This document shows, piece by piece, positions 4,467 to 23,509 of a stretch of DNA of 31,452 nt. Under the pieces are notes generated by a model. The model did not search any database. It worked only from the letters and a program-made list of their open reading frames with translations, and had not been told where the DNA came from. Origin of the DNA: Promethearchaeota archaeon (lineage in GTDB: Archaea; Asgardarchaeota; Lokiarchaeia; Sigyniarchaeales; SOKP01); NCBI GenBank assembly GCA_048941285.1, contig JBHLNS010000039.1:1-31452 (forward strand), read 5' to 3'. Each line of letters begins with the position of its first letter. Within the stretch, counting starts at the first letter, position 1. The position numbers and the translations under genes are program-made.

Positions 4467-7400
4467 ATGTCAAGGTTATGGAGTAGTGTTTTGGTTATCG
4501 GAGGAGGAATCTCAGGGATACAAGCCTCCTTAGATCTAACAAAGTTAGGATTTAAGGTATATTTAGTCGAAATCAAACCAACAATAGGAGGTACTATGGC
4601 CCAATTAGATAAGATATATCCTACTCTTGATTGTAGTTTATGCATTCTAGCTCCAAAAATGGTTGATATATATAGAAATCCAAATATTGAGCTATATACT
4701 TACTCGTACGTTAAAAACATTAGAGGAACAGCTGGTGATTATACAATAACGATTATTAAAAAGCCGAGATATTTAAAAGAAGATCTCTGTAAAGGATGTG
4801 GAGATTGTGGCGAAATCTGTCCCATAAGGGGAATTCCTAGTGAATTTGATACTCATTTAAAAACTCGAAGTGCTATATATATTCCTTTTCCATCTTCAGT
4901 GCCTCCGATATATCTTATTGATGATAAAAAATGTTTATATTTAAATTATAGAATATGTGGACTGTGTGCTAAAGCTTGTAATGCAGATGCAATAGATTTT
5001 TTACAAAAACCAGAAGAAATAAATTTGAGAGTGGGGGCTATTGTTATTGCTACAGGATATAATCAAGAAATGCCAGAAAATTATAATTCTTTTGCTGGAT
5101 CTTCCCCTAATGTTCTATCTAATATGCAATTTGAGCGCCTTTTATCAGCCAATGGGCCTACTGGTGGTAAAATCATAAGATTGGATGATAAAAAGCATCC
5201 TCATTCGATAGCTTTTATACAATGTGTAGGGTCTAGAAATGTTCATCATCCTGAATGTAAAAAATACTGTTCTGCCATATGTTGTATGAATTCAGCTAAA
5301 GAAGCAATAGTTGTCAAAGAACATGATCCCATGATAGACTGTTATATTTTTAATACAGAAATTAGAGCAAAAGGAAAAAACTTTTACGAATTTATTGAAA
5401 AAAGTAAGAATGAATATAGTGTTAAATATGTAAACGGTCATGTTTCATATATAAAAGAAAATTTAGATAACGGTAAATTAAAGTTATTTTATGAAGATAT
5501 CGATAAAGAAAAAGTTGAAACTTTTGAAGTGGATATGGCTATATTAGCTAGTGCACTATCTCCACCTCCTTCGTATTATGAGTTATTAAAAAAGCTCAAT
5601 TTGAAATGTGATGATTTAGGTTATATTAGTGAAAAAGATATAATTTTACTTGAGAAAGAGAATATATTCGTAACTGGCTATTCTAGGAAACCCAATGACA
5701 TTCAAATGGCTGTTGCTGAGGGTTCTGCATGTGCTGCAAAAATTAGTGAGAAATTGTATCCTGTGAGATTTCAGAATATTATAAAATTAACGTATCCTCC
5801 AGAAATACCCGTAAAGCCAGAAGATCAACCTCGTGTAGGTGTTTTAGTTTGTCGGTGCGGTATTAATATTGGAGGTATTGTTAATGTTCCCGAAGTAGTA
5901 GATTATGTTTCTAATTTGCCATATGTTGTACATGTTGAAGAAAACATGTACTCTTGTAGTTCTGATTCCCAAGAGCGGATTAAGGAATTAATAGTAAACT
6001 ACAATCTTAATAGATTTATAGTTGCTTCCTGTACACCTCGAACTCATGAACAACTTTTTAAAAACACTCTAAGAGAGGCAGGATTAAATCCATTTTTATT
6101 CGAATTAGTAAATATAAGAAACCAGGATTCCTGGGTCCATCAAAAAGAGCCTGAAAAGGCTACTCAAAAAGCATGTGATTTAATAAGAATGCACTTAGCA
6201 AAGGTAATTAACTTAAAACCGTTAGAAACCATTAAAGAAAAAGTTGAAAAATCAGCTTTAATAATTGGTGGGGGAATAGCAGGAATAACAACTGCACATA
6301 ATTTGGCAAATCAGGGATTTGAAATTTATCTTGTAGAGAAGAAGTCTATTCTTGGAGGTGTTGCTCTTGAATTCATTGATTTATATTATATACCTATTAC
6401 GAAAAATGAAATTTTAAAGAAAATTAATGATTTAAAAAACAAATCTAATATTCACATTTTATTAAATTCTGAAATACAAGATATTCAAGGGTATGTTGGA
6501 AATTATCAAGTAAAAATTAAAAACGTTCATGAAAGTTCAAAGCATACAATATTCAATGTAGGTACAATCATAGTATCTACGGGAACTAAGCAAATAAAAA
6601 CAAATAGATGGATAGATCTATCGGAAAAATATCCTAAACGTTTACTAACTCAAACCGAATTAACTGGATTGAAGGATGAAGATATCCCCGAATTTAAAGA
6701 TGCTACAATAATTTTATGTGTAGATCAAAGAAGAGATGAATATAATAATGGAGATAATATAAAAACTTATTGTTCAAATATCTGCTGTGGTGTAGCATTA
6801 AAGAATATTGAAAAGTTATTGACTATCAATCCAAAAGCACATATTCATATTTTATATAGAGAATTTCAATTTTCAGATTTAAATGCGGAAAATCTATGGC
6901 GCAGTCTTCGAAAGAAGGTAACCTATGAAAGATATCGTTCAATTGATGATATCAGAATCAGCGATGAAAATAATCAACTCCATATCTTATATAATAATAT
7001 TAGCGCTCAAACAGATATACAATATGATACTGATTTAATAATATTAGCCACTCCAAAAGTTCCGACTGATGATACTGCACAATTAGCAAAAATGTTAAAA
7101 GTATCAACAAACATAGATGGCTTTTTCTTAGAAGCTGATGCAAAACTTAGGCCAATTGATTTTGCTACTGAAGGGATTTTCCTTTGCGGAGGAGCACATT
7201 GGCCGAAATGGATTGGTGAGACAATAATTCAGGCTTATGCTGCTGCGGGAAGAGCAGCAATAATAATGGTTAAAGGGGAGATAGAAACTGAATGTATTAC
7301 TTCTTATATAAATGAAGAAAAATGTATAGGATGTGGTAAATGTAAGGAGATTTGTCCCTATAATGCTATTGAACTAGTTGAAATTTGTAAAGAGATGGGG

Positions 7401-7580
7401 TTGTATAATATATCTATGAAAAAAGCACGGATAATTAGTGCTGTTTGCAAAGGGTGTGGAGCTTGTGTTGTGGAATGCTCAGTTGGTGCTATTGACCAAA
7501 ATCATTTTAGTAAATTTCAAATTAGCAAAATGATTGACTTATTACCAAGTTTAGATAAAATTGATTATGAAATAGTTTAA
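4467..7580 (+). CDS. hdrA: Heterodisulfide reductase subunit A-like flavoprotein, long form with two FAD-binding modules (Cys form)
   Basis: Two GGGIxG FAD motifs, LDKIYPTLDCSLC, inserted ferredoxin, QCVGSR...CSAICC, an internal VCRCGINI/ASCTPRTHE/IRNQDSWVH domain and a C-terminal 2x[4Fe-4S] domain. Confidence 0.9.
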   Translation: MSRLWSSVLVIGGGISGIQASLDLTKLGFKVYLVEIKPTIGGTMAQLDKIYPTLDCSLCILAPKMVDIYRNPNIELYTYSYVKNIRGTAGDYTITIIKKPRYLKEDLCKGCGDCGEICPIRGIPSEFDTHLKTRSAIYIPFPSSVPPIYLIDDKKCLYLNYRICGLCAKACNADAIDFLQKPEEINLRVGAIVIATGYNQEMPENYNSFAGSSPNVLSNMQFERLLSANGPTGGKIIRLDDKKHPHSIAFIQCVGSRNVHHPECKKYCSAICCMNSAKEAIVVKEHDPMIDCYIFNTEIRAKGKNFYEFIEKSKNEYSVKYVNGHVSYIKENLDNGKLKLFYEDIDKEKVETFEVDMAILASALSPPPSYYELLKKLNLKCDDLGYISEKDIILLEKENIFVTGYSRKPNDIQMAVAEGSACAAKISEKLYPVRFQNIIKLTYPPEIPVKPEDQPRVGVLVCRCGINIGGIVNVPEVVDYVSNLPYVVHVEENMYSCSSDSQERIKELIVNYNLNRFIVASCTPRTHEQLFKNTLREAGLNPFLFELVNIRNQDSWVHQKEPEKATQKACDLIRMHLAKVINLKPLETIKEKVEKSALIIGGGIAGITTAHNLANQGFEIYLVEKKSILGGVALEFIDLYYIPITKNEILKKINDLKNKSNIHILLNSEIQDIQGYVGNYQVKIKNVHESSKHTIFNVGTIIVSTGTKQIKTNRWIDLSEKYPKRLLTQTELTGLKDEDIPEFKDATIILCVDQRRDEYNNGDNIKTYCSNICCGVALKNIEKLLTINPKAHIHILYREFQFSDLNAENLWRSLRKKVTYERYRSIDDIRISDENNQLHILYNNISAQTDIQYDTDLIILATPKVPTDDTAQLAKMLKVSTNIDGFFLEADAKLRPIDFATEGIFLCGGAHWPKWIGETIIQAYAAAGRAAIIMVKGEIETECITSYINEEKCIGCGKCKEICPYNAIELVEICKEMGLYNISMKKARIISAVCKGCGACVVECSVGAIDQNHFSKFQISKMIDLLPSLDKIDYEIV

Positions 7581-7595
7581 TTAGGGTGATCTTTT

Positions 7596-8072
7596 CTGCT
7601 AAAATTAAAAACAAAGGTAAAAAATGAATTTGAACCAAATATTTTAGTTTTTTGCTGCAATTGGTGTAGTTACGCTGGAGCAGACTTAGCAGGGGTATCG
7701 AGGTTTCAATATCCCCCAAATATTAGGATTATAAGAGTTATGTGTTCTAGTAGGGTTGATCCTACATTCATTCTAAGAGCTTTTAATAATGGAATAGATG
7801 GAGTTTTAATTATTGGATGCCATATGGGTGATTGTCATTATATGAAAGGATTTGAATATGCTCAAGTTAGAATGGCTCATTTAAAGAAGTTAATAAAATA
7901 TATTGGTATTGAAGCAGATAGATTTGAACTGCAATCCATTTCAGCAAGTGAGGGAAGGCAATTTTCTGAATTAATTAAAAATTTTACAGAGAAAATTAAA
8001 GAATGTGGAGAATTAAGAATCCCTAAAAAACGTGGTGTATTTGAATTTGAATATAGTTATAATAAGAATTAA
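7596..8072 (+). CDS. mvhD: MvhD [2Fe-2S] subunit (methyl-viologen-reducing hydrogenase delta), Cys form; true start lies upstream of the ORF-track ATG
   Basis: The in-frame upstream sequence reads EFEPNILVFCCNWCSYAGADLAGVSRFQYPPNIRIIRVMCSSRVDP...GCHMGDCHY. The frame opens after TGA 7587. Start is probably CTG 7596, or ATG 7624 with a 1-nt frameshift. Confidence 0.85.
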   Translation: MLKLKTKVKNEFEPNILVFCCNWCSYAGADLAGVSRFQYPPNIRIIRVMCSSRVDPTFILRAFNNGIDGVLIIGCHMGDCHYMKGFEYAQVRMAHLKKLIKYIGIEADRFELQSISASEGRQFSELIKNFTEKIKECGELRIPKKRGVFEFEYSYNKN

Positions 8073-8083
8073 AAAAAGGAATT

Positions 8084-9217
8084 ATGATGACTGAATCAGC
8101 TTATAAAAAAAAATTACAAAATGAAGTAAAAACATTTGAAGATCTTAAATATGAAATAGTTGATAGTAATAAATGCTGTGCATGTGGTGCTTGCATAGCA
8201 TATTGCGAAAGTCAGAGTTTTGATGTTATTAAAATGAAAGGATATATTCCTGAATTTAAATCAAAAAAAAGTGTTGAAAATTGCACTAAATGTGGTATTT
8301 GTTATTTTATTTGCCCTCAAACAAAAGTATTATTAAAAGAATTAAATGAGACTTATTATATTGAAGATAATATTGGAAAAATTGTTAAAATTCTTGCTGC
8401 TAAGACAACTAATACTGGATTAGAAAAAGTTGGACAAGATGGAGGAGTAGTTTCAGCAATTCTAACATATTTATTTGAAAAACATAAAATTGATGCAGCA
8501 ATTGTTTCGGAATTTGACCATAATTTTAAACCCGTTCCAAAAATTATATTTGATAAAAAAGATTTATTTAAATCCGCTGGAACTCGTTATTCTATTTCTC
8601 CTCAAATATTTCCTTTAAAAAATTTATATACTCTACCAAAAGAAATTCTTATAAAGAAGGAGATAATTGATACTGACGAGCTAAGGATAGCATTTATAGG
8701 GACTCCTTGCCAATGCAGAGCTGTCAATAAAATGAAATTTTTAAACGTTAAACCAGCTCATGTAATTAAATATATTATAGGTCTTTTCTGTTTTGAAAAT
8801 TTTATGTATGACAAACTATATGATATTTTAAAAACAGAGGTAAATGTTTATCCTACTGATATCAAGAAAACTTGGATAAAAAAGAATTTCTTTATCCAAA
8901 CTAAAGATGAAAAAGAATTCGAAATCGATATAAAGACTCTAAATCCCGCAGTAAGAAATAATTGTTATGAATGTGATGACTTCACCGGAAGATTTACAGA
9001 TATTAGTGTTGGGGCAACTGGAGCTCCAGGAGGATATTCTATGATACTAAGTAGAACTGATAATGGCAAAAATATAATAAATAGAATGCTTTCACAAGGA
9101 TTAATTGAGCAATTTATTGTTCCATCTAATAGAACAATTGAGTGGAAGAATAAAAAATTGGATTGGTATAAAAAATTAATTTCCTTAAAAATCAGTAATC
9201 ACACTAATATAAAATGA
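8084..9217 (+). CDS. Coenzyme F420 hydrogenase/dehydrogenase beta subunit family (FrhB/FdhB/FpoF-like) with N-terminal ferredoxin
   Basis: CCACGACIAYC, CTKCGICYFICP, GQDGGVVS, AGTRYS, GTPCQ, IGLFCFENF, CYECDDF and DISVG motifs. Confidence 0.85.
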   Translation: MMTESAYKKKLQNEVKTFEDLKYEIVDSNKCCACGACIAYCESQSFDVIKMKGYIPEFKSKKSVENCTKCGICYFICPQTKVLLKELNETYYIEDNIGKIVKILAAKTTNTGLEKVGQDGGVVSAILTYLFEKHKIDAAIVSEFDHNFKPVPKIIFDKKDLFKSAGTRYSISPQIFPLKNLYTLPKEILIKKEIIDTDELRIAFIGTPCQCRAVNKMKFLNVKPAHVIKYIIGLFCFENFMYDKLYDILKTEVNVYPTDIKKTWIKKNFFIQTKDEKEFEIDIKTLNPAVRNNCYECDDFTGRFTDISVGATGAPGGYSMILSRTDNGKNIINRMLSQGLIEQFIVPSNRTIEWKNKKLDWYKKLISLKISNHTNIK

Positions 9218-9324: not shown

Positions 9325-11361
9325 TTAGGTGTGATAAGGAGCTAAAGCTTCAATCTTTTTCCAAATAAGTTCAATAGATTCAATATAATCTTTCTTATAT
9401 TCAAGTTCAGTACTACAAATTCCTTTTACCTCTTCAGAAAGTTGTTTTTCTCTATAATATTTAAGATCAATTGCTCTGGCAGGGCATGATGATACACACA
9501 CTCCGCAGCCTTTACATTTTAAGTCATCTACTTTAGCTATATTGTCTCCATTAACACTTATTGCTTTATAATGACAAAGTTTTTCACATCTATGGCAACC
9601 CATACATAGATTTTCAGCTACTTCAGCGATGATTAATTCTTGTGTGATTATATCCTTAGAAAGCAAAATAGATGCTTTACTTGCTGCAGCTAATGCAGTT
9701 GATACTGAATAAGGGATATTTTTAGGGCCAGTAGCACATCCACATATGTAAATGCCTAAATTATTTGTCTCTTGAGGTTTTAGGCATCCATGAACTTCAG
9801 TTAAAAACCCATTTATATCTTTAGCAATTCCCAAACTTTCAACGATTTCTATTGTACCTTTTGAAGGAACCATGCCCGTAGATAATACTACTAAATCTGT
9901 ATTCATGATAATAAAATCATCTGTTAAAGTTGAAGCAGCAGTAACTCTTATTTTTCCAATTTGGGGATCTTCTCTTATATCTCCTACTTTTCCTCGGATC
10001 ATCATTATCCCCGCCTCTCTAGCTTTTCTATAATATTCTTCATTTCTTTTATCCCACGTTCGCATATCTATGTAAAAGATAACGATTTCCATTTCAGGAT
10101 ATTCTTGTTTTAGCAATTGAGCATTTTTAAGTGCAACATTACAACATACTCCTGAGCAATAAGGATTCCCCTTTAATGATCTTGAACCCACACATTGAAT
10201 CATCGCAACTGTGTTTGGGACTTTTCCATCAGAAATTCTACATACATGCCCTCCAGTTGGTCCAACGGGACTTAACATACGTTCTAATTCTATTTGAGTA
10301 ATAACATCAAGATAAAAACCATATTTATAATCATTATTTTTCATAATTGGATATTCATCCCATCCCGTGGCAATAATAACGGCACCAACTTTTAATTCTA
10401 TATATTCTGAAACTTGATCAAAGTCAATAGCTTCTGCGGAACAAAGTCTTTGACAATTTTTACATTCTATACATACACTTTTATCAATTAAAGCAATCTT
10501 AGGAACTGCTTGAGGAAAAGGTATATAAATTGCGCTCCGCTCACCCATCCCTCTGTTAAATTCATTAGGGACCTTTACTGGACATTTTGTTATGCATAAT
10601 CCACAACCCGTGCACTTACTATCATTAATATAACGAGCTTTTTTATGAATTTTAACATTATAATTTCCAGGGTTACCTGTAAATTTAACAACTTCACTAT
10701 AAGTAAATAATGTTATGTTTGGATGTTTTGAAGTACTTACCATAATAGGTGCTAAAACTCATATAGCACAATCATCTGTTGGATAAATTCGATCTAATTG
10801 TGCCATTTTTCCCCCAATTGTGGCTTCTTTTTCAACTAAATATACTCGTATACCTTGATTTGCTAAATCTAATGCAGCATTCATCCCTGCAATACCAGCA
10901 CCAATAATTAATACCGATTTTTCTACTGATAATTTTTTATGAGGTATTATTTCTAATTCTCTAGCTCGATTTATGCCAGCTTGCACTAATCTTATAGCTT
11001 TTTCGGTAGTTCTCCTTTTATTTCCTGAATGAATAAAGGAACATTGTTCCCGAAGATTAACCATTTGAAAATAATATGGATTTAATCCTGCTTCAACTAA
11101 AACTAATCGATAGGTAGATTCATGAATTTTAGGTGTACAGGCCGCCACAACTACCCTATTTAGATCTAATTCTAAAATATCATTTTTAATAATTTTTTGT
11201 CCCGGATCACTACAAGTAAAATCATTTACTTTGGCAACAATAACATTTGGTAGAGCCTCAACATAATCTCTAATAAGATCACAATCAATTGAAGCACTGA
11301 TATTAACTCCTCATCTACAGATATAAACTCCAATTCTAACCATGGTCTGTGCCTCAGACAT
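9325..11361 (-). CDS. hdrA: Heterodisulfide reductase subunit A, selenoprotein (678 aa; Sec at codons 17 and 201)
   Basis: One frame from ATG 11361 (GGTGG RBS): MSEAQTMVRIGVYICR-TGA(11313-11311)-GVNISASID...VVAACTP...LDRIYPTDDCAI-TGA(10761-10759)-VLAPIMVSTSKHPNI... Both TGAs align with Cys in the paralog at 4467-7580 (VCRCGINI; DCSLCILAP). Joins ORF-track pieces 10759-11148 and 9325-10743. Confidence 0.88.
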
Positions 11362-11860
11362 ATAATCCACCTACTAAAACATCACCAACTATTAGTTTTG
11401 ATATAATAAATTTATGAAATTTGAAGAACTGAAAATTTATAAGAGGAATAAATGCTTTTTTTTTCTTTTTATCCGATTAAATGAAGATTTTGAATAAATT
11501 TAAAAAATCTGATAAGAGAAATTTTAATTATTTGACTAAATTTCTAGTCATTTTTTGAATTAATGTACGGATCTGATCTACTTATTATCACATTCTTTCA
11601 GTCATATTATCGATCTCATAACACTTATCACAGTCTTTTCACTATTACTTTGAAGGTTTCTGATCACTCACAATGGGAAAAGGATCACATTTATATACTT
11701 TGACAATAATATTTATCATAGAGATCATAAAGTTAATCAAAATAGTCATAAGAATTTTTGAAATTAATAATAATAGTTTTTCATCATAATATGTTATTTT
11801 TCTTAAAAAATATGTAATTTAATTTATTTGAAATTAAGTAGAAAAGAAATGAATTGAAGT

Positions 11861-14410
11861 ATGGATATATATTCTATATTATCTCATCCGTTTAGAAGAA
11901 AGATCTTGCTTCTTTTAGAAAAAGAAGGTTATATTCCCTATACAGATTTAATGGAAAAATTGGGTTTAGAAACAACCGGACAGTTAAATTTCCATCTCAA
12001 GAAAATTGGATCATTAATAAATAAGGATAAAAAATCATATTTTCTTACAGAAGATGGTAAACGTGTGCTAAAGATACTAAATCTTAACAAGAGAATTTTA
12101 TCGGGAGAGAATATTGATGAATACTTAGATTCGAAAGGAAGCGATATAAGTCGCATTGGTGTTATAATTTGTAATTGTAATACAGAAATTTCAAATGTAA
12201 TTAATATAACAGCACTTGAGAAATATGTGAATACTCTAAGAAAGGTTGTATCTGTCAAAATCTTTGAAAATTTATGTCAACAAAAAAATTTTGATAAAAT
12301 TACACATTGGGTAAAAGATAATTTTCTAAATAAGATTGTAATAGCTGCATGTTCTCCAAGAAGCCATCAACATCTCTTTAAACGAATTTTTGATGGTGTC
12401 ATTGAGCATGTCAATATAGAAATTGCAAATATTAGAGAACAGTGTTGTTGGGTACATCAATTCGAAATGAATCAAATGGATCCTTCTCTTTCATTAGAAA
12501 AAGCTAAATTACTAATTGAAGCTGCTATTGAACGTGTCAGTCTTCAAAAAAAAGTAAAAGTAAAGCGAGTTGAAATCGAAAAAAGCACTGCAATTTTAGG
12601 TGGTGGAATAGCTGGCATAACACTTGCATTAAACTTAGCTCGAGCAGGAATAAAAGTTTACGTTATTGAAAAATCGCCAACTTTGGGAGGCAAGGTAGCC
12701 AGATGGGATCGGATTCATAATATGGGTGATTGTTCTATATGTTTCATTTCGGAATTAATAGGCGAGTTAGTCAATGAAAAAAATGTGAAAGTATTTACTA
12801 ATACTGAAATAGAAAATGTTTCAGGAGAAGTTGGAAATTTCACTCTTAATTTAATTAAAAAACCACGATATGTAGATAATAAGAAATGTACTGGCTGTAA
12901 ACAGTGTATACAAGTATGCAGTATTGAAAAAGTGAATCAATATGAATTTGGATTAAATAATAGAAAAATCATTTATATCCCATTTATTCATTCCTTTCCG
13001 TATATTCCTTTAATTGATGAATCCGATATTAAAAACTGTCTTAGTTGCAGAATTTGTGAACGTGCCTGTGTTAATAAAGCAATCGATTTGACTCAAAAGC
13101 CAGAAAAAATTGAGATTAAAGTAGGTACTAAAGTTATAGCTATTGGTTCTGATCTTTTTTCAGATTTAGATGAATATTGTCATAATCCCCAAAATGATAT
13201 TATTTCATCATCTGAGTTTGAAAGAATGCTGTCTTCTGATGGTTTTACAGAAGGTAAAATATTAAAAATTTCTGATAAGACTCCTCCAAAAACGATTTCA
13301 ATTATTCAATATGCAGGTCCCCCTGATCATCAACATAAACTTCAAGATATCTTGGCGTTAAAATATTTAAATTATATAGATGTAAAAAATCCTGAATGTA
13401 AAGTTAACATTTTTTACGATTTAAGTAAGATAAATAAATCTGATGATTTCTTACTAAGATCCATGGATTCTAGAATACACTACTCCAATAAGATAAAAAT
13501 AATGGAGAAAGGCAGCCAAAAGATAGTAAAAGTCGATTCAAAAGAATATCCAAGTGATCTAATTATACTAAATCAAACTTTAGTACCAAATAAAGATTTA
13601 AAATCATTTCGAAAAACAATGGATTTCACATTAGATGATTATGGTTTCATGAGTGAAGAAACATTGGCATCTGGAATATATGGGGTTGGAACAATATTTG
13701 GGCCATTAGACTATAATTCTACCATTTCAACAGCAAATAATACTGCAATTAAAATAATTTCACTCCTCTCTAATGATTATTTGATAGCTGAATTTAGTGG
13801 AATTGAAATCGATGATAACAAATGTGGCTTATGCGGATTGTGTTCTAAAATTTGCCCTTTTAATGCAATTACCATAGAATCAGAAAAAGTAAGTATAGAT
13901 AAATTCAAATGTAAGGGTTGCGGTACTTGTGCTAGTATTTGCCCTACTAATGCGATAGATTTAAACATAGATAATTCTGAGAAGATATTAAAATCAATTG
14001 AAATTTTTTCTAAATTCAGAAAAAAACCTAAAATTTTAGCATTTTGTTGTCGCTCTTGTGGTTATGCTGCTGCTGATGATGCTGGTCTTAAGAAAATCTC
14101 ATATAATCCAAACACTTTTATTTTAAGTGTTCCTTGTACTGGTCGCATAGATACGAGTTTTATAATTAAATCTTTTGAATTAGGTTTTGATGGCGTAATG
14201 ATAATTGGTTGCAGAAAAAATGCCTGTAGATATATTGATGGAGTAGAAAAAGTGGAAAAAAAAATTATGATATTAAAAAATATTATCCCCACTAAATATC
14301 GAGACCGAATTATTCTTAAACATATGAACGCCGTTGAAGGTAATAAGTTTGCTGAGGTTGCTAATAAATTTTATAAAAAATTATTAGAGGAGGTCATAGT
14401 TGAAACCTAA
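11861..14410 (+). CDS. Fusion of a winged-helix (ArsR-like) DNA-binding domain, a degenerate HdrA and MvhD
   Basis: N-terminal LSHPFRRKILLLL...YTDLMEKLGLETTGQLNFHLKKI...YFLTEDG (wHTH). Then HdrA motifs ICNC, AACSP, IREQCCWVH, GGGIAG, DCSIC and ferredoxins. C-terminal MvhD motifs FCCRSCGYAAADDAG, PCTGRID, GCRKNACRY. Confidence 0.85.
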   Translation: MDIYSILSHPFRRKILLLLEKEGYIPYTDLMEKLGLETTGQLNFHLKKIGSLINKDKKSYFLTEDGKRVLKILNLNKRILSGENIDEYLDSKGSDISRIGVIICNCNTEISNVINITALEKYVNTLRKVVSVKIFENLCQQKNFDKITHWVKDNFLNKIVIAACSPRSHQHLFKRIFDGVIEHVNIEIANIREQCCWVHQFEMNQMDPSLSLEKAKLLIEAAIERVSLQKKVKVKRVEIEKSTAILGGGIAGITLALNLARAGIKVYVIEKSPTLGGKVARWDRIHNMGDCSICFISELIGELVNEKNVKVFTNTEIENVSGEVGNFTLNLIKKPRYVDNKKCTGCKQCIQVCSIEKVNQYEFGLNNRKIIYIPFIHSFPYIPLIDESDIKNCLSCRICERACVNKAIDLTQKPEKIEIKVGTKVIAIGSDLFSDLDEYCHNPQNDIISSSEFERMLSSDGFTEGKILKISDKTPPKTISIIQYAGPPDHQHKLQDILALKYLNYIDVKNPECKVNIFYDLSKINKSDDFLLRSMDSRIHYSNKIKIMEKGSQKIVKVDSKEYPSDLIILNQTLVPNKDLKSFRKTMDFTLDDYGFMSEETLASGIYGVGTIFGPLDYNSTISTANNTAIKIISLLSNDYLIAEFSGIEIDDNKCGLCGLCSKICPFNAITIESEKVSIDKFKCKGCGTCASICPTNAIDLNIDNSEKILKSIEIFSKFRKKPKILAFCCRSCGYAAADDAGLKKISYNPNTFILSVPCTGRIDTSFIIKSFELGFDGVMIIGCRKNACRYIDGVEKVEKKIMILKNIIPTKYRDRIILKHMNAVEGNKFAEVANKFYKKLLEEVIVET

Positions 14411-15158
14411 ATTTGTGATAATATCTTTAACTTCTTGTAGTGGATGTATTTCTTCTCTTTTATCATTAGATATTTTTCCACAAATCCTTGAAAGAACCAA
14501 GATAATTTATTTTCAGTTTATTTCTGATATAAAAGACATTGATAATTGTGATATCTGCTTAATTGAAGGATGTGTTTCTGAAGAGAATCAAATATCGATA
14601 CTTCGAAAAATCCGAAAACTAGCAAAAAAAATATATGCCTTAGGAACATGTGCTTGTTTTGGAGGAATTTTAAGTCTATCAGATATAAAAAAATCTGAAC
14701 CAATTTCAAGTTATATTGAAATTGATGGGATAATTCCCGGTTGTCCACCACCTATGAAACTTTTTGGTAATTGTCTAATTAGATTAGTTGAGAATAAAGA
14801 AATAGAATTATCTGAAAAAAATATGTGTGGGACTTGTCCTTCAAGAGGGAATATGATAATAAATTCAAATATAAATATCTCAAAAATTAGTCCAAACCCA
14901 GAAGAGATTAAATTTGAAGAAGAAAACTCTAAATGTTTTTTGGAAGAGGGAATTTTATGTTTGGGACCAATAACGCGAGATGGGTGTGAACATAAATGTA
15001 TTAAGATGGGTGTTCCCTGTGAAGGCTGTATAGGACCAGTTTCAAAAGATTTTACTTCCAATATTGTTAACTATTTGAGTTTGATAAATTTATCTGAGGA
15101 ACTAAAAAATTACACTGGTATTTTTTATCGATTCTCGAAACCAAAATTAGAGGGGTAA
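14400..15158 (+). CDS. mvhG: [NiFe]-hydrogenase small subunit, MvhG-like (group 3c)
   Basis: SCSGC, IEG, GTCACFGG, IPGCPP, CGTCP and CFLEEGILCLGPITRDGCEHKC...PCEGCIGP; GGAGG before the TTG start. Confidence 0.85.
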   Translation: MKPKFVIISLTSCSGCISSLLSLDIFPQILERTKIIYFQFISDIKDIDNCDICLIEGCVSEENQISILRKIRKLAKKIYALGTCACFGGILSLSDIKKSEPISSYIEIDGIIPGCPPPMKLFGNCLIRLVENKEIELSEKNMCGTCPSRGNMIINSNINISKISPNPEEIKFEEENSKCFLEEGILCLGPITRDGCEHKCIKMGVPCEGCIGPVSKDFTSNIVNYLSLINLSEELKNYTGIFYRFSKPKLEG

Positions 15159-15162
15159 AAAA

Positions 15163-16467
15163 ATGTTAAAAGTCATTGATGTTTGTAAACGTGTTGAAGG
15201 GCATGGAGAAATAAAAATTTTAATGCAAAATGATGAAATATCGTTAATAAATTTTGAATTTAATATATATAGAGGTTTTGAAAATTTCTTAATTAGAAAA
15301 AAACTATTGGATCTACCAAAAATAGTTTCTAGAATATGTGGATTATGTTATGCCTCTCAAGCAATCGCGAGTTGTAAAGCTATTGAGGATATATATAATA
15401 TCAAGGTTTCAGAACAAGCAAAATCTTTAAGGAGTATATTAATGACTGCTGAATTAATCAAATCTCATTCAATGAATTTCTTTTTTCAAACTTTACCAGA
15501 TCTATTAAATATTTTTAATTTTAGTCAAAAGACTATAACTGCCAATGATTTAATTAATTATAACCCTCAATTAACTACAAACATATATGAACTAATCAAA
15601 ATTGGAAATGAAATTAATAACTTATTTGGGGGTAGATCAGTTCATTTAATTTCACCAATTCCAGGAGGAATTATTTATTCTCCTTCTAAGAAAAATATTT
15701 CAATCGCGAAAAAAAGGTTTCAAAGTGCTTTATTTAATTTGGAATGGATTATCCAGAAATTTATTGAATTATTTTCAGATCAAATACCACCTGAAGAATT
15801 CGAGACTCCTAATCTGATTTACCTTGGTCTTTCGAATTTAAGAAATTATAATCGATATTCAGGAATGTTATCATTAAAAGAAACAAATAGAAATATAATA
15901 GAATTTGAAAAGCAAAATTATTCATCCTATTTTGGAAAGGAACCAGATTTACGTGGTATTGACTTTTACTTTGAAAATAAAAAAAAAATTATCGTAGGGC
16001 CTTTTAGTAGATATAATATTAACGAAAATTATGGCACAGATGATATTCAGACTTATCTTGAATATTTTGATAAACAATGGAAAAAAAATATTCTATTTGC
16101 CAATTTTATTAGATTATTGGAAATGTATATAGAAAGTTACCAGAGTTTACAAATGTTAGATAATCCTGATTTAAACCATAAACAAGAAATCCCCCCTCTA
16201 AACGCAATAAAAAAGTATGATGGAATCGGTGTTATTGAAGCCCCCAGAGGCATACTATTACATCATTATTATATAAATAATCATAATTCTATTGATCGCG
16301 TAAAATTATTTGTTGCTACTGAATTTAATATTCCATTAATAAATGAAATGATTACAAATTATGCACAAAAATTATTTGAAAAAACAGGAGATATTAATTT
16401 AGTAAAAAATAATGTTCAGAGGATTATAAGATCGTTCGATCCGTGTATTTCTTGCGCGACACATTAG
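15163..16467 (+). CDS. mvhA: [NiFe]-hydrogenase large subunit, MvhA-like (group 3), lacking a C-terminal extension
   Basis: RVEGHG, L1 RICGLC, EAPRGILLHHY, and L2 DPCISCATH followed directly by the stop. Confidence 0.85.
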   Translation: MLKVIDVCKRVEGHGEIKILMQNDEISLINFEFNIYRGFENFLIRKKLLDLPKIVSRICGLCYASQAIASCKAIEDIYNIKVSEQAKSLRSILMTAELIKSHSMNFFFQTLPDLLNIFNFSQKTITANDLINYNPQLTTNIYELIKIGNEINNLFGGRSVHLISPIPGGIIYSPSKKNISIAKKRFQSALFNLEWIIQKFIELFSDQIPPEEFETPNLIYLGLSNLRNYNRYSGMLSLKETNRNIIEFEKQNYSSYFGKEPDLRGIDFYFENKKKIIVGPFSRYNINENYGTDDIQTYLEYFDKQWKKNILFANFIRLLEMYIESYQSLQMLDNPDLNHKQEIPPLNAIKKYDGIGVIEAPRGILLHHYYINNHNSIDRVKLFVATEFNIPLINEMITNYAQKLFEKTGDINLVKNNVQRIIRSFDPCISCATH

Positions 16468-16968: not shown

Positions 16969-17349
16969 ATGAATAGGATAATCGGAATACCATCGAATGG
17001 AACTGAATTATCAGATAACATATCACCTCATTTTGGACATTGCAGATATTTCATTGGAGTTAAAATTAATAATAACAAATCGATTGAACGAATATTTACT
17101 TTATTCAATGAAAGTCACAATGGATGCATGGAACCTGTTATGAATATGAAAAGGCAAAATGTTACAGATATGATTTTAATTGGTATAGGTATGCGTCCAT
17201 TTATGGAATTTCAACATGTTAATATAAATTTATATCAAGGCGTGAATACGAGCATTGAGGAAAACATAAAATTATTTATCCAACAGAAATTAGGACCAAT
17301 GGGTCAAGCTAGTTGTGGAAATAATTCTAATAACTCTCACACACATTAA
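16969..17349 (+). CDS. NifB/NifX (FeMo-co biosynthesis-like) family protein
   Basis: ISPHFGHCRYF and GIGMRP motifs. Confidence 0.85.
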   Translation: MNRIIGIPSNGTELSDNISPHFGHCRYFIGVKINNNKSIERIFTLFNESHNGCMEPVMNMKRQNVTDMILIGIGMRPFMEFQHVNINLYQGVNTSIEENIKLFIQQKLGPMGQASCGNNSNNSHTH

Positions 17350-17385
17350 AATATAATAATAAAAATTTAGATTAGATGAGATTAA

Positions 17386-17895
17386 ATGCCAAGTTTTAAA
17401 GAAACATATGATGCCATCAAGGCAGATTGGAATGCAGGAGAAAAAAATTTTAATATTGAATGCGAATTGCTACCAGAGGGTATGCAAGTTAACTGCATTA
17501 TGGGGAATCCTGCTGGAGAGCCTTTTGAACTACTTATTGATGCCCCTGGAGGACTGGATGGAACCAATAAGGGACCATCACCATTATTGGTAATTCTAGC
17601 TTCTATCGGCGCTTGTATTGTTGCTGTAACCAGATTTTGGGCTAAAATAATGGACATTAAAATCGAAGAGATGAAAGTTTTTTCTCGAGGACACATTAAT
17701 TTAGGAGCGATTTTTGGTATTGATGATTCAAAATTAGCTGGATATGATAAATTAGAACCTGTCATAAGAATCAAAGCAGATGCTTCAGAAGAAAAAATTA
17801 ATGAATTAATGGATAAAGTTTTTACTCATTGTCCTGTAATTAATAATTTTGGTGGAGCATCAAAGATTCAGCCAAAAGTTCAGATTAGAAAATAA
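17386..17895 (+). CDS. OsmC/Ohr family protein
   Basis: DAPGGLDGTNKGPSPLLVILASIGAC ... HCPV. Confidence 0.85.
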   Translation: MPSFKETYDAIKADWNAGEKNFNIECELLPEGMQVNCIMGNPAGEPFELLIDAPGGLDGTNKGPSPLLVILASIGACIVAVTRFWAKIMDIKIEEMKVFSRGHINLGAIFGIDDSKLAGYDKLEPVIRIKADASEEKINELMDKVFTHCPVINNFGGASKIQPKVQIRK

Positions 17896-17957
17896 ACATT
17901 ATTCTTTTTTTTTTTTATATTAGTCATTTAAATTCATTATACCTAACTGAAGATATC

Positions 17958-18398
17958 ATGGATAATGAAAAATTATTTCCTATATATGTAAATCCAAATT
18001 TTTGCATATTATGTCAGCGATGTTCGTATAGTTGCCCTAAGAAAGCTATTTTTTTTAAAAATTCACTTAGATCTGTACACTATGATAAGTGTCAAGGATG
18101 TTTAAAATGCGTAGATGTCTGTGAACATGGAGCTATTGAGGTTATTTCAATTACTGAGGGTAGTTTAAAAGGTTTTTGCATTAATACAGAAAAATGCAAT
18201 ATATGTAAACTTTGTTTGGAAGCAAACTTTTGTTTTCAAAAATTATTTTACATCAAAATGGATAAAAAAACGGGTAAAGAATTCATCGCATTTGACCATG
18301 ATAATATTTCAGAATGTCTCAAATGTTTAAAATGTTTTAAGAGCTGTCCAAATAATGCAATAATACCTGAAATTGTTAATGTTAATAATAAATCGTAA
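17958..18398 (+). CDS. Polyferredoxin (up to four [4Fe-4S] motifs)
   Basis: CILCQRCSYSCP, CQGCLKCVDVC, CNICKLC...C and CLKCLKCFKSCP. Confidence 0.85.
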   Translation: MDNEKLFPIYVNPNFCILCQRCSYSCPKKAIFFKNSLRSVHYDKCQGCLKCVDVCEHGAIEVISITEGSLKGFCINTEKCNICKLCLEANFCFQKLFYIKMDKKTGKEFIAFDHDNISECLKCLKCFKSCPNNAIIPEIVNVNNKS

Positions 18399-18474
18399 TC
18401 CTAATTTTCCTGTTATAATAATTAATCAAGTTAAGTTGCTACCATTAAAATTGAAAACAATTCTAATTAAGTTA

Positions 18475-18891
18475 TTAATCATGGTGATGATGTTCATGAT
18501 TATCATCAGCTTCAGTATGAATTTTTTCAACACCATAACCCTTACCACCACCTGGTTTACAAAGACTTTCTCCTCCTTCTAGAGTCCCATCGATTATCTT
18601 TTTAACGACATCATCAATTGTACCAGAAACTCCTACAATTACTTCAATCCCATAGTCATTAAAGAAAGCTTCAGCTCTACGGCCCATGCCTCCAGCTATC
18701 ATAAAATTTGCTCCTTGTTGATGTACAAAATTAGGTATACTCCCAACTGAATGTCCTGGATTTGGAAGAACCTTTTTATCTATAATTTTATTCTTTTCAA
18801 TAGTAACAAAAGTAAATTCTGGAGCTCTACCAAAGTGACCACTTACTCTTCCAGAATCAGTACTAATAGCAATTTTCATTATTTTCAACAA
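18475..18891 (-). CDS. NifB/NifX family protein with His-rich tail
   Basis: VSGHFGRAPEF, NPGH, AGGMGRRA and C-terminal HEHHHHD. Confidence 0.85.
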   Translation of the reverse strand: MLKIMKIAISTDSGRVSGHFGRAPEFTFVTIEKNKIIDKKVLPNPGHSVGSIPNFVHQQGANFMIAGGMGRRAEAFFNDYGIEVIVGVSGTIDDVVKKIIDGTLEGGESLCKPGGGKGYGVEKIHTEADDNHEHHHHD

Positions 18892-18943
18892 ATTTTTTCT
18901 TTTAATTTATATTAAAATAGGATAATATAAAATATAAATTTAA

Positions 18944-18957
18944 TGAATAATTATTCA
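18944..18957. promoter_or_regulatory. Palindromic operator TGAATA-N2-TATTCA (copy 2)
   Basis: Perfect palindrome ATGAATAATTATTCAT between the divergent NifX-like and DUF134 genes. Confidence 0.7.
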
Positions 18958-19142
18958 TAATATGGAAATATTTTGCTATTATATATCAATGATTGTTCTA
19001 ATATAAGATAAGAGAAAATCTATAATATTTCTAAATAATATTTTTTAATAATTTTGAATAATTAATAATAAAAATCTGGATCAATAATTTTACATTGATT
19101 TATTTGGAAAATAAACCATAACCATTTTTTTGGTGATTTGAT

Positions 19143-19562
19143 ATAGGAAGAAGAAGACATCGTCGATGGGTTAATCAACCTCCTAATAATTTCTATTTCA
19201 CAAGTGAAGCTCCGAGAACCGAAGATTCAATAATACTAACTCTTGCAGAATTTGAGGCTATGAGATTAAAGCATTTTTTAGGTTTAAATCAGAAAGAAGC
19301 TGCTGAAAGGATGGGTGTAAGCCAGCCAACATTTTCAAGGATTCTTGAAAGTGCCCATCAAAAAAACACTTTAGCTTTATTGGAAGGGAAACAAATTAAA
19401 ATACATGGGGGTAATTTTGATTATAAGTTAAGTTTTAAGGGTTATGGATGTTTAAATTGTAATCATGAGTGGGAAGACCCTAGCGCTTCTAAAGATCAAA
19501 AAGTTTATTGTGTTAAATGTAATTCAAATAATGTCTATTATATTGTTAGAGAACTCATATAA
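19143..19562 (+). CDS. DUF134 (UPF0251) HTH DNA-binding protein with C-terminal zinc ribbon; probable ATA start
   Basis: The in-frame upstream part reads GRRRHRRWVNQPPNNFYF...LTLAEFEAMRL, then NQKEAAERMGVSQPTFSRIL, CLNCNHEW and CVKC. The frame opens after TGA 19134. Confidence 0.85.
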   Translation: MGRRRHRRWVNQPPNNFYFTSEAPRTEDSIILTLAEFEAMRLKHFLGLNQKEAAERMGVSQPTFSRILESAHQKNTLALLEGKQIKIHGGNFDYKLSFKGYGCLNCNHEWEDPSASKDQKVYCVKCNSNNVYYIVRELI

Positions 19563-19598
19563 TATCTAAATCTATAATATTTAGTTTTAAAAAATTTT

Positions 19599-20549
19599 TC
19601 AAATTTGATGAAGATTATTCCATAAAATAGAATTAAGATTTTGATAAATTTCTTTAATAGATAAACTTGCCTTGGAGTGGGGGGCAAAATCTACAACTGG
19701 TACTGCAAAAGACATTGCTGTTGGAATAGATAAATCAAATGGAATATCTCCTAATTTTTTGTATCCGGTAGTTGTAATGAATTTTTTGAATTCTTTTTGG
19801 AATGGGCTTTTCAAATCAAACTTATTTACAATTAATCCAAATTTAATTCCAAAATGTTGAATAACTTCTAATACACGTATCAAATCATGTAATCCAGAAG
19901 GTGTAGGCTCAGTAATAGCAATAACATAATCCAAATTTGAAATGGTTGCAATAACTGGGCAACCAATTCCAGGGGGTCCGTCAATTAGAACTAAATTACG
20001 TTTATTAATTTGTTTTAAATTGTTTACATATTCTTTTACATCTGATACTAATTTTCCAGAGGTAGTACTACCTAATTGAGTTTTTCCATAAATTAAAGGA
20101 AACCCCATCATAGTTTTATATGAAATAATTTCCCCACTCTTTACAGGATGTATTTCAAAAGCATTTTCTGGGCATAAAACCTTACAAGCTCCACATCCCT
20201 CACATTTCAAAAAATCAATAGTAGGGATTGAATTGGGAGTGTCCCAATTTAAAGCATTAAATTCACAAAAGTGATCTTCAATGCATTGTTTACAATTAAT
20301 ACATTTCTCTTCTAAGAATTCTGCTTTTCTTGTAGTATATGTATCTTCTTTACTTATTAAAGATTTATCCTCAGGAGGAAGAATAACTGCTAGATTCGGA
20401 GCATCTACATCGCAATCCAATACAATAACTTGTACGTTTGAATCCTTTTTTGCAAGACTAGCCAATGATGCTGTTAATGAGGTTTTTCCTACACCTCCCT
20501 TCCCCGAAACAATTCCTATTTTTTTTATTTCCAAATTTAAACCCTTCAT
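19599..20549 (-). CDS. MinD-superfamily P-loop ATPase with inserted ferredoxin domain
   Basis: SGKGGVGKT, DCDVDAPN, CINCKQC, CEGCGACKVLCP, SGKLV, DGPPGIGCPV, EPTPSGLHD. Confidence 0.9.
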   Translation of the reverse strand: MKGLNLEIKKIGIVSGKGGVGKTSLTASLASLAKKDSNVQVIVLDCDVDAPNLAVILPPEDKSLISKEDTYTTRKAEFLEEKCINCKQCIEDHFCEFNALNWDTPNSIPTIDFLKCEGCGACKVLCPENAFEIHPVKSGEIISYKTMMGFPLIYGKTQLGSTTSGKLVSDVKEYVNNLKQINKRNLVLIDGPPGIGCPVIATISNLDYVIAITEPTPSGLHDLIRVLEVIQHFGIKFGLIVNKFDLKSPFQKEFKKFITTTGYKKLGDIPFDLSIPTAMSFAVPVVDFAPHSKASLSIKEIYQNLNSILWNNLHQI

Positions 20550-20556
20550 CTAATTA

Positions 20557-21480
20557 TTATTTAATTAGTTCTAACCATTTTTTCAATTTTTCATAAGTCT
20601 TTGTAAAAGCAATATAACCAGCACCATTTTTGTTAAATTTACTATTTTTATCCATAATTGGTGTCCCTTGACAATAGGATTCTACAATATCAGAATTTAA
20701 TGGAATATCACCCAAAATTTTTATGCTTTCTTTCTCTAATTCACTTAAAAATTGATCTCTGAATCCAAGTAAGGAGGATCTATTTACTATAACACGAGAT
20801 TCTTTACCCAATAAATTAATTAATTCCATTATCCTAAGTAAATCTAATTTTCCAAACTTAGTTGGTTCTGTTATAGGAATTACAATATCAGCATTAGCAA
20901 TCAAAAGTTCCACATCACAATGAGCACCTGGAGCAGTATCTATAATAATAATATCAAACCTTTCTTGTTCACTTTGAAGAATTTCTTCGAGTTTTTCAAT
21001 CAAGGCTTCTACAATTGCTGCTGAACGAGCTTCCGAAGGTTTTAGTTCTCCTAGAAAAAGTGAAATTCCATTTATCCTTGTTGAATAAGTCCATCCTATA
21101 GTTTTTGTATCTTCCTCAATTGCATTTTCTGGGCAAATTTTATAACATAACTTGCATCCAGAACATATAGTTAAGATTGGAATTGGAAACGCATCATTAA
21201 CATGTAGCAGAGCATTTGACAAACAATTTTGAGCACATAATCCGCATTTAGAGCACTTACTTTCAATAATTTTAGGTTTAAAAAATGGAACCTCCTTTTT
21301 ATTTTCAAGAATTCCACTTAATAATAAATATGTATTAGGATTTTCTACATCACCATCAATAAGTAGTACTTTTTTACCATCATTCTTGAACATGACAGCA
21401 AAATTTACAGCACATAAAGTCTTACCAGTTCCACCTTTTCCCCCTGTAATGCAGATTATTTTAGGGTTCTTGCTATTCAT
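20557..21480 (-). CDS. MinD-superfamily P-loop ATPase with inserted ferredoxin domain (partner paralog)
   Basis: GGKGGTGKT, DGDVENPN, CSKCGLCAQNC, CSGCKLCYKICP, DTAPGAHC, EPTKFG. Confidence 0.9.
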   Translation of the reverse strand: MNSKNPKIICITGGKGGTGKTLCAVNFAVMFKNDGKKVLLIDGDVENPNTYLLLSGILENKKEVPFFKPKIIESKCSKCGLCAQNCLSNALLHVNDAFPIPILTICSGCKLCYKICPENAIEEDTKTIGWTYSTRINGISLFLGELKPSEARSAAIVEALIEKLEEILQSEQERFDIIIIDTAPGAHCDVELLIANADIVIPITEPTKFGKLDLLRIMELINLLGKESRVIVNRSSLLGFRDQFLSELEKESIKILGDIPLNSDIVESYCQGTPIMDKNSKFNKNGAGYIAFTKTYEKLKKWLELIK

Positions 21481-21512
21481 AAGAAATTATTTTTTAATTA
21501 ATTTCTAGCATT

Positions 21513-21953
21513 TTAAAGATCGTTTCTGCGTCCCATCCCTTGACCACCACCCATTCCTTGTCTCCCTCCTCCCATTCCATAATGTGATGCAACATTTGAA
21601 GTATTTAATGTCTCTAAATTTCCTTCTAAATATAGATTCATAACTTCTTTTATTGTAATTGATTGATTTGGAGCTTGGTAAATATGGATATCTAAAGCTT
21701 TAAGTCCATCAGCGGCATTAGGCCCTAAAAAGCCTACTATTACTGCATTAGCTCCATTATTACCAATTATTTGTGTTGCCTGGACACCAGCACCTCCCAT
21801 CGTAGTCGATGCAGGATTTGGTACTGTTTTTACTGCCTTAATCTGTTTACCATCTACTTCAACGAATGTAAAACTAGCACATCTCCCAAAACGAGGGCTC
21901 ATTTGATCGTTTAAACCCCCATCACTCATTGAAGGAATTGCTATAATACTCAT
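21513..21953 (-). CDS. NifB/NifX family protein with Gly/Met/Arg-rich tail
   Basis: SPRFGRCASF, GGAGVQA, GPNA. ATG 21953 is preferred over the ORF-track TTG 21983. Confidence 0.85.
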   Translation of the reverse strand: MSIIAIPSMSDGGLNDQMSPRFGRCASFTFVEVDGKQIKAVKTVPNPASTTMGGAGVQATQIIGNNGANAVIVGFLGPNAADGLKALDIHIYQAPNQSITIKEVMNLYLEGNLETLNTSNVASHYGMGGGRQGMGGGQGMGRRNDL

Positions 21954-22000
21954 TTTTTTTAACCGTTTATTTAAAATATTCAATTCATAAGTTTTTAATT

Positions 22001-22020
22001 TAATGAATAATTATTCATTA
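22001..22020. promoter_or_regulatory. Palindromic operator TGAATA-N2-TATTCA (copy 3)
   Basis: Perfect 20-bp palindrome TAATGAATAATTATTCATTA between the divergent NifX-like and mrp genes. Confidence 0.7.
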
Positions 22021-22081
22021 TTAATATAACAAAATTTATACAATATATAAATTTAACCATTAAATTAAAATTAAGAGGTGC

Positions 22082-22963: not shown

Positions 22964-23060
22964 ATAGTTCATCTAATTAAATTTTACAATTATCAGATTA
23001 ATATTAATTATTAAAAGTAAAATATTCTGGAGTAGTGTTCACAAAATACCACTAGACAAT

Positions 23061-23489: not shown

Positions 23490-23509
23490 AAATTTCCAAT
23501 TAAAGCAAA

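Follow-up and report, generated by a model that had tools for sequence, protein, structure and literature searches.

Can a hydrogenase carry its own repressor? This is the question raised by a 31,452-nucleotide (nt) stretch of DNA from a Promethearchaeota archaeon of the Lokiarchaeia (GenBank assembly GCA_048941285.1, contig JBHLNS010000039.1), hereafter the window, which is contig C67 of a 3.55-Mb genome that is 94% complete and has a G+C content of ~30%. On its forward strand, a tight three-gene operon encodes a fusion of a winged helix-turn-helix (wHTH) domain, an HdrA-like flavoprotein and an MvhD domain (open reading frame at 11861-14410, 849 amino acids (aa)), followed by the small (mvhG, 14400-15158, 252 aa) and large (mvhA, 15163-16467, 434 aa) subunits of a [NiFe] hydrogenase. 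From the letters of the DNA, the original prediction saw here a one-component H2- or redox-sensing transcription factor built from a group 3c hydrogenase. The architecture turns out to be widespread in Asgard archaea, and we favour, at about even chances, a neighbouring reading in which it is a trigger enzyme like PutA, which would repress its own bidirectional promoter and be tuned by H2 or redox state.

The predicted succession of wHTH-HdrA-MvhD fusion, mvhG and mvhA is present throughout. Pfam places DUF7347 (PF24038) at residues 2-71 of the fusion (E 5.8e-10, 39.7 bits for a cut-off of 27.6), alongside a weak HTH_24 match, flavin adenine dinucleotide (FAD)/NAD Rossmann domains and 4Fe-4S domains. 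The ArsR/SmtB-like wHTH spans residues 1-85 (11861-12115, + strand), with TGQLNFHLKK as its recognition helix. The HdrA-like body, residues 97-715 (12149-14005, + strand), is defined by its invariant cysteines, by alignment to canonical HdrA and by end-to-end alignment to HdrA sequences in PDB (8rvu_a, E 3.6e-108; 5odc_A, E 1.5e-104), and the MvhD/FlpD domain, residues 725-841 (14033-14383, + strand), by Pfam FlpD (E 1.1e-32) and by alignment of residues 722-841 to MvhD 5odc_D (E 7.7e-23). The first 11 nt of mvhG (Pfam Oxidored_q6, E 7e-19) still belong to the fusion gene, and mvhA (Pfam NiFeSe_Hases, E 5.5e-29) starts 5 nt past mvhG, both on the + strand. The NCBIfam models all score below their cut-offs, i.e. 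HdrA2 (NF040770), the best match, for the fusion (568 bits, cut-off 1100), VhuG for MvhG (about 132-133 bits, cut-off 450) and VhuA for MvhA (151 bits, cut-off 800). Annotation pipelines call the fusion 'hydrogenase iron-sulfur subunit' or 'FAD-dependent oxidoreductase', which hides its regulatory domain. As had been claimed, there is no hdrB or hdrC in the operon: a Pfam scan of the three genes finds no CCG-domain (HdrB/HdrD) gene, and no HdrB/HdrC partner genes sit beside mvhA in the flanks of the related loci. The genome encodes ~20 CCG proteins elsewhere, making an HdrBC partner in trans possible.

A fusion seen on one contig might be an assembly chimera, a worry that is answered by its distribution. 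A protein search retrieved >120 clusters of 66-94% identity, mostly ~849 aa long and nearly all with PF24038 (a few shorter ones, of 793-821 aa, are without it). A scan of 400 genomes of the Asgard phylum with residues 1-200 of the fusion, which span the wHTH-HdrA junction, gave 119 matches in 118 genomes. These matches start at residue 1 or 2, end at 199 or 200 and lie in open frames of mostly ~840-900 aa, which come from several families and are down to 38-44% identical. With the junction present in that many clusters and genomes, the chimera was rejected. Synteny is conserved as well. We compared 67 related genome loci and a distant set of seven (36-55% protein identity to the fusion): mvhG always directly follows the fusion gene, and the order fusion-mvhG-mvhA is kept in each sufficiently long related locus and recurs in the distant ones, the exceptions being truncated loci and one spurious match. 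The architecture is thus far beyond chance or misassembly. The related contigs are labelled Promethearchaeota or other Asgard. The fusion is an accessory gene: among the other genomes of its genus, 39 of 53 have it, and among those of a sister family, none of 14. A 9.8-kb contig labelled Candidatus Deferrimicrobium (L062) encodes the C-terminal half of the fusion, MvhG and MvhA (49-63% identity); it probably comes from an Asgard archaeon and was binned wrongly.

The wHTH anticipated at the N-terminus is genuine, and of ArsR-like type. Besides the Pfam match to DUF7347, a profile search with it hits the Archaeoglobus ArsR-like protein 1y0u (E 8.6e-4), and its AlphaFold2 model, with a predicted local distance difference test (pLDDT) score of 84, runs through three helices into a beta wing and ends with a long helix. 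The best Foldseek matches of this model are NolR, YodB, CadC, ArsR, HlyU and HxlR (template modelling scores 0.58-0.70), the nearest folds being those of DNA-binding ArsR, HxlR and MarR proteins. It is also the most conserved domain of the fusion (mean pairwise identity of 0.81 across 54 sequences, for 0.64-0.80 in the other domains). The TGQLNFH of the recognition helix is invariant in 28 sequences, and distant lineages keep this helix as TG-x-(L/F)-N-(F/Y)-HLKK. Modelled as a homodimer, the wHTH scores 0.45 (0.01 for the best control), with an interface formed by residues 1-8, 13 and 68-89, at least 82% of contacts shared between three runs and a partner pLDDT of at least 85; the mark applied to such scores is one that 20 of 30 solved homodimers and one of 23 single chains attain, but since ArsR-type dimers have already been solved this pass may show likeness only, not proof. 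When residues 1-95 were compared with shorter proteins in search of stand-alone relatives, 35 matches were found, of which the close ones are fusion fragments at contig ends and the sole different one (P0155, 44% identity) is an RDD membrane protein. The same genome encodes a second DUF7347 wHTH (E 3.1e-10) in a 657-aa protein (G000:C1:104892-106865, i.e. L073 4893-6866), where an NrdD-like region (PF13597, E 3.6e-19) makes up the C-terminal part of the fusion; judging by these domain matches, it would be another enzyme-plus-wHTH fusion.

What such a domain might bind is suggested by the DNA upstream of the operon. Aligned upstream regions share a TATA box, 9 nt, then TTGACAATAATATTTATCATAGAGATCAT...TTAATCAAAATA. 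The box is conserved as TTTATATA or TTTAAATA at that distance from the conserved block, and in the window it reads TTTATATA (11690-11697, + strand). Four nt past it comes a 16-bp operator-like palindrome, GACAATAATATTTATC (11702-11717), of the form GAYAA-N6-TTRTC, whose half-sites are 11 bp apart centre to centre and which, at the usual archaeal distance between TATA box and start, would cover the expected transcription start. Together with the TTAATCAAAATA that follows, this palindrome forms a conserved promoter/operator block of 46 nt (11699-11744, + strand), and the weight matrix built for this block from 12 non-redundant loci finds one scoring site in the entire 3.55-Mb genome. The strict palindrome pattern matches only at 11702-11717 in the window and 36 times in the genome (0.010 per kb); five of these matches are intergenic and a clear TATA box stands ahead of the one at 11702 only. 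A wider regulon was considered and rejected, given that the block scores once and the four other intergenic palindromes are without a clear TATA box; the genes beside them (for a HAD-like hydrolase, an Elp3-like radical SAM protein and unknowns) look unrelated.

The palindrome travels with the fusion gene. It lies within 1.5 kb upstream in 47 of 56 related loci and within 400 nt in five of seven distant ones (including a near-perfect GACAATTTTAATTGTC), where the upstream DNA is visibly more G+C-rich. The 46-nt block scores upstream of the fusion gene in most of the related loci, always on the strand of that gene and at either 85-155 nt or ~1300-1350 nt from it. The longer spacing is due to a gene for a 363-aa protein of the FrhB/FdhB family between promoter and fusion gene (L003, 4759-5850), found at the same spot in many relatives (L006-L009, L011-L014, L016, L017, L019, L024, L042, L049 and L053-L055). 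The operons of the window and of the relatives closest to it (L001, L002 and L005) are without this FrhB-like gene; no remnant of it was found at 11745-11860 of the window, and the best match in the genome is on another contig (C85, 62% identity), in an unrelated context.

The control region may serve a second gene. It was predicted that the divergently transcribed selenocysteine (Sec)-hdrA is a target, which is partly upheld: a second operator-like palindrome, GACTAAATTTCTAGTC (11534-11549), does lie on that side, 168 nt from the first (start to start) and facing Sec-hdrA at 173 nt from its start, but the best-conserved target is the promoter of the operon itself. Two palindromes 80-200 nt apart occur in 34 of 55 loci. 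The second one is 143-169 nt farther upstream in a reverse-oriented module, which 22 of the loci listed possess. Sec-hdrA, a likely second target of the control region, is a canonical hdrA (9325-11361, - strand) with two in-frame TGA codons (11311-11313 and 10759-10761). Read with TGA as U (MSEAQTMVRIGVYICRUG...DDCAIUVLAP), these give ICR-U-G and DDCAI-U, and both fall on cysteine positions of the N-domain cluster, namely the CxCG motif and the Cys197-equivalent. The protein probably has two selenocysteines, which we regard as putative.

How might a redox body be coupled to such a domain? The HdrA part of the fusion retains the cluster of its N-domain, the FAD site, the DCSIC motif and two ferredoxin domains, one inserted and one C-terminal. 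In an alignment of 41 sequences, the cysteines of the N-domain cluster, DCSIC, both ferredoxin domains and MvhD are invariant, among them Cys294, the Cys197-equivalent. What has been lost is the [4Fe-4S] cluster of the thioredoxin-reductase domain, whose four cysteines (canonical CVGSRD..YCSRVCC) are absent from the window fusion (IIQYAGPPDHQHKLQDILALKY, 13301-13366, + strand) and its Loki relatives, whereas in Sec-HdrA of the window they are present, as CVGSR..YCSGVCC. For the electrons of HdrA, passages of Chadwick et al. (2022; PMC9012536) describe two exits, to HdrBC by this cluster and to ferredoxin by the inserted ferredoxin domain and the N-domain cluster, and state that the N-domain cluster is completed by Cys197 of the partner protomer, so that it bridges two HdrA protomers. 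The exit to HdrBC is hence the one missing in the fusion, in line with the lack of hdrBC in the operon, and the dimer-bridging cluster is kept. Among the distant fusions, those of L075-L077, L080 and L081 still have the four cysteines, which are absent from L078, L079 and the Loki clade. A full HdrA cluster set together with an MvhA of the usual His type (see below) is found in several of the more distant lineages with wHTH fusions.

The reading that we favour assembles these elements as follows. A cytoplasmic Mvh-type [NiFe] hydrogenase (MvhA/MvhG) would be wired by the fused MvhD to an HdrA-like FAD/iron-sulphur (Fe-S) protein with an N-terminal wHTH and, as HdrA is dimeric, the complex should present a pair of wHTH domains. 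This pair would bind the 16-bp palindrome past the operon's own TATA box, and the copy facing Sec-hdrA, and once bound the protein would keep transcription from initiating. H2 and/or the ferredoxin pool would set how far the flavin and Fe-S centres are reduced, which would alter DNA binding and thereby tune expression to H2/redox status, much as in the flavoenzyme-repressor PutA. In the lokiarchaeial lineage, nothing would be fed to HdrBC, and the only path left to electrons would be that linking H2, FAD and the clusters on the ferredoxin side. A wHTH, palindromes and an obligately dimeric HdrA make a coherent whole if taken as an autoregulatory device.

Several points weigh against this reading. 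That this particular wHTH binds DNA, that it represses and that H2 or redox state switches it is what we infer, and the function is putative. Residues 1-96 have no cysteine, hence no metal- or thiol-sensing cysteines, and no obvious ligand site, so that any switch must pass via the linker, residues 72-95 of which are poorly modelled (pLDDT <50 in the full-length fusion). A strict match to the palindrome is absent from nine of 56 related and two of seven distant loci, and the palindromes could belong to some other, unlinked regulator. The conserved block reaches into the likely 5' untranslated region (UTR) and could act at the RNA level. Finally, the related loci share ancestry and are not independent samples, which means that locus counts overstate the statistical support, although at these divergences intergenic DNA should be saturated despite this kinship.

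The alternative that survives best, which we nevertheless consider unlikely, is that of a dedicated one-component H2 sensor, in which the hydrogenase turns over slowly and has no other job than setting the DNA binding of the wHTH. One argument for it is MvhA. The nickel ligands (Cys59, Cys62, Cys428 and Cys431) and the EGH and PRG motifs of this subunit are kept, but its L1 motif, RICGLCYASQ, has a Gln (Gln66, 15358-15360) where the L1 His would be, and its last residue is His434 (DPCISCATH-stop), which bears out the predicted lack of a C-terminal extension; 5odc_F (473 aa) aligns to it up to its residue 448, the canonical form being ~25 residues longer. Gln is found at L1 in 56 of 56 MvhA orthologues with a readable motif, and the extension is absent from 53 of 54 complete ones. 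Both traits are those of HoxC, the H2 sensor of Cupriavidus necator (RVCGICSVSQ, ending with the histidine of DPCMVCTVH), unlike HoxG, which has His and a 15-aa extension. The best 150 representatives at 50% identity have His (107), Gln (10) or Tyr (7) at L1 or are unreadable (26), and the ten with Gln are among the higher-scoring of these. A dedicated sensor would also agree with the loss of the HdrBC branch, with MvhA being the least conserved of the three proteins (63, 57 and 42% identity for fusion, MvhG and MvhA in L045, for instance) and with the presence in the genome of a separate, canonical Sec-type Vhu hydrogenase (His-type VhuA, separate extension-bearing VhuU peptide, HycI-type protease). 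The genome's second [NiFe] hydrogenase, on contig G000:C88 (L072, 5244-8100), pairs a small subunit of 440 aa with a large one of 452 aa that is without the C-terminal motif; a separate VhuU-like peptide (7918-8100) has DCUxxCxxH, in which U is a TGA codon, and an extension, and just beyond it the contig ends. The mvhA of L077 (G307:C6) encodes KICGFCSAAH and ends with DPCISCSSV plus eight residues, i.e. the terminal histidine of the motif is replaced.

What speaks against a dedicated sensor is that a TATA-linked operator is found in this genome only at the operon's own control region, which is why a sensor with a wider regulon is not indicated, and a sensor that regulates mainly itself needs an enzymatic purpose. 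The ferredoxin-side clusters, FAD motifs, nickel ligands and the arginine of PRG are all kept, and many relatives have the FrhB-like subunit in the operon. As to the two HoxC-like traits, 19 His-type representatives among the best 150 are also without extension, and passages of Roncaroli et al. (2015; PMC5665086), while setting the Gln of sensors against the His found there in all other [NiFe] hydrogenases, report that this Gln seems not to be needed for, or involved in, H2 sensing. In the distant fusions, MvhA has His and 7-10 extra residues (L079 has Gln and six), and as the more distant wHTH fusions combine His-type MvhA with full HdrA, the wHTH predates the HoxC-like traits. A trigger enzyme is thus preferred to a dedicated sensor on two grounds: the operator is found only at the operon's own bidirectional control region, and the older fusions have all cofactors and the FrhB-like subunit. 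Within this preferred reading, the Loki lineage, judging by its lost HdrBC branch and HoxC-like active-site environment, appears to have shifted towards the sensor end. The conserved wHTH, the missing HdrBC and the HoxC-like MvhA bear out part of the idea of an H2-sensing transcription factor, but taken together the evidence points to an enzyme that would also regulate, rather than to a pure sensor.

Less probable still, and quite doubtful in our view, is that the complex is an enzyme only, with the wHTH in a structural or docking role (dimerisation or contact with a partner, for example) and the palindromes serving another regulator, the basal promoter or the 5' UTR. In its favour, DNA binding by the wHTH is putative, the NCBIfam ArsR/SmtB model scores 23.1 bits on it for a cut-off of 55, the DUF7347 on the NrdD-like protein suggests that the domain may be a general appendage, and the Helarchaeota complex discussed below was seen as an energy-transferring one (Seitz et al., 2019; PMC6478937, in the passages concerned). 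A docking module does not explain, however, why the invariant part of the domain should be exactly its recognition helix, why its nearest folds should all be DNA-binding regulators, why the palindrome should co-occur with the fusion down to 36% protein identity in spite of G+C-richer upstream DNA, or why the 11-bp spacing of its half-sites should suit a wHTH dimer.

An assembly, Fe-S or oxygen sensor, whose DNA binding would need an intact cluster-bridged HdrA dimer and would track cofactor supply or oxidative damage instead of H2, is very improbable, for although the wHTH is joined directly to an HdrA N-domain with invariant cysteines and a cluster completed by the partner's cysteine, and genes for NifU, Mrp/ParA-type Fe-S carriers, FeoB and Nitro_FeMo-Co proteins lie nearby, it is pure conjecture and explains neither the specific changes in MvhA nor the constant co-encoding of a whole hydrogenase module.

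A separate operon upstream encodes an HdrD-like CCG protein (3156-4412), a 1037-aa double HdrA (4467-7580, + strand) with two HdrA-like halves and FAD motifs near residues 8 and 597, MvhD (7740-8072, + strand) and an FrhB-like protein. The double HdrA resembles the tandem forms of anaerobic methanotrophic archaea (ANME) described in passages of PMC9012536. The MvhD matches positions 34-123 only of the FlpD profile; reading TGA as U gives no longer frame, leaving the first third of the domain unaccounted for. Downstream of mvhA, 16969-24445 is crowded with genes related to Fe-S and metal cofactors, which encode three Nitro_FeMo-Co proteins, OsmC, a polyferredoxin, two ParA/Mrp-like proteins with ferredoxin inserts, an Mrp/NUBPL homologue, NifU and a radical SAM protein, and feoB is found at 26627-28780. 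Nitro_FeMo-Co, OsmC and ferredoxin genes also adjoin mvhA in L004, L013, L055 and L057.

The three-gene cluster has apparently been met before. Passages of Seitz et al. (2019; PMC6478937) describe in Helarchaeota a 'possible energy-transferring complex', with possibly membrane-bound electron transfer, and among our loci L043 is a Hel_GB_A contig. That paper nowhere uses the word 'helix' in its main text, and the passages concerned mention neither the L1 Gln nor the lost cluster. We found no published account of DUF7347/PF24038 or of an HdrA-linked wHTH, but the supplement of PMC6478937, with its search for transcription factors and binding motifs at the cluster, may bear on novelty. The passages at hand of a preprint on HdrA architectures distinguish 11 of them, none with a helix-turn-helix. 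Cultured Asgard archaea live by syntrophic H2 production, according to the part of PMC11216029 that deals with them.

The locus matters for several reasons. In Asgard archaea, the nearest relatives of eukaryotes known so far, it is a concrete and widespread candidate for H2/redox sensing, present in 118 of 400 genomes sampled, with a defined 16-bp putative operator and a 96-residue domain to work with. No H2 sensor is known to us from archaea, though no search aimed at one was made. That the present locus is the first one, and also the first one-component H2 sensor, with electrons passing from H2 to MvhG, MvhD, the HdrA flavin and the attached wHTH dimer, is a doubtful proposition; if true, it would mean that H2 partial pressure sets transcription of the operon and of Sec-hdrA in syntrophic, H2-producing Asgard archaea, and that the Loki lineage convergently gained the Gln/no-extension signature of bacterial H2 sensors. 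The apparent evolutionary series, from a full-cofactor Hdr/Mvh fusion to a form without HdrBC branch and with bacterial-sensor features, bears on how metabolic enzymes turn into regulators.

It is by comparison with known systems that the locus is best placed. Like the methanogen MvhADG-HdrABC complex (group 3c, PDB 5ODC), it has adjacent MvhA, MvhG, MvhD and HdrA homologues, but here HdrA and MvhD form one polypeptide that begins with a wHTH, the cluster through which HdrBC is fed has disappeared, the operon is without hdrBC, the L1 His is a Gln, and the C-terminal extension is absent. The order of HdrA and MvhD is that of the Methanosarcina fusion HdrA2, the best NCBIfam match, which differs in acting with HdrB2C2, without adjacent hydrogenase genes or wHTH (as partly described in PMC5296606). 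With ArsR/SmtB and HxlR/YodB repressors, it shares the fold, a modelled dimer via first and last helices and a palindrome at its own promoter, but these repressors are stand-alone proteins of ~100 aa and here the domain has no metal- or thiol-sensing cysteines. With HoxBC/HupUV of Cupriavidus necator (group 2b), it shares the L1 Gln, a large subunit that ends at the DPCxxCxxH histidine and a second, canonical hydrogenase in the same genome; in contrast, the nearest solved relatives of its MvhA are of the group 3 type rather than of group 2 (7t2r_D, 5odc_F with E 2.7e-46, and 5xf9_D), the best match on pHG1 is HoxH, not HoxC, and, where HoxBC signals through a histidine kinase (HoxJ/HupT), Pfam scans of the window reading frames show no kinase domain, histidine kinase or response regulator, and the output would be the covalently attached wHTH. 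The closest functional parallel may be PutA, a proline-utilisation flavoenzyme and autorepressor, which binds operators in a divergent control region including its own promoter. In both there is an N-terminal DNA-binding domain on a flavoenzyme, with flavin reduction as the proposed switch, and the fusion has, at the level of sequence, the traits expected of a trigger enzyme, namely a redox body and a wHTH in one polypeptide and operator-like sites in its own control region; PutA uses a ribbon-helix-helix instead of a wHTH, and has neither hydrogenase nor Fe-S relay.

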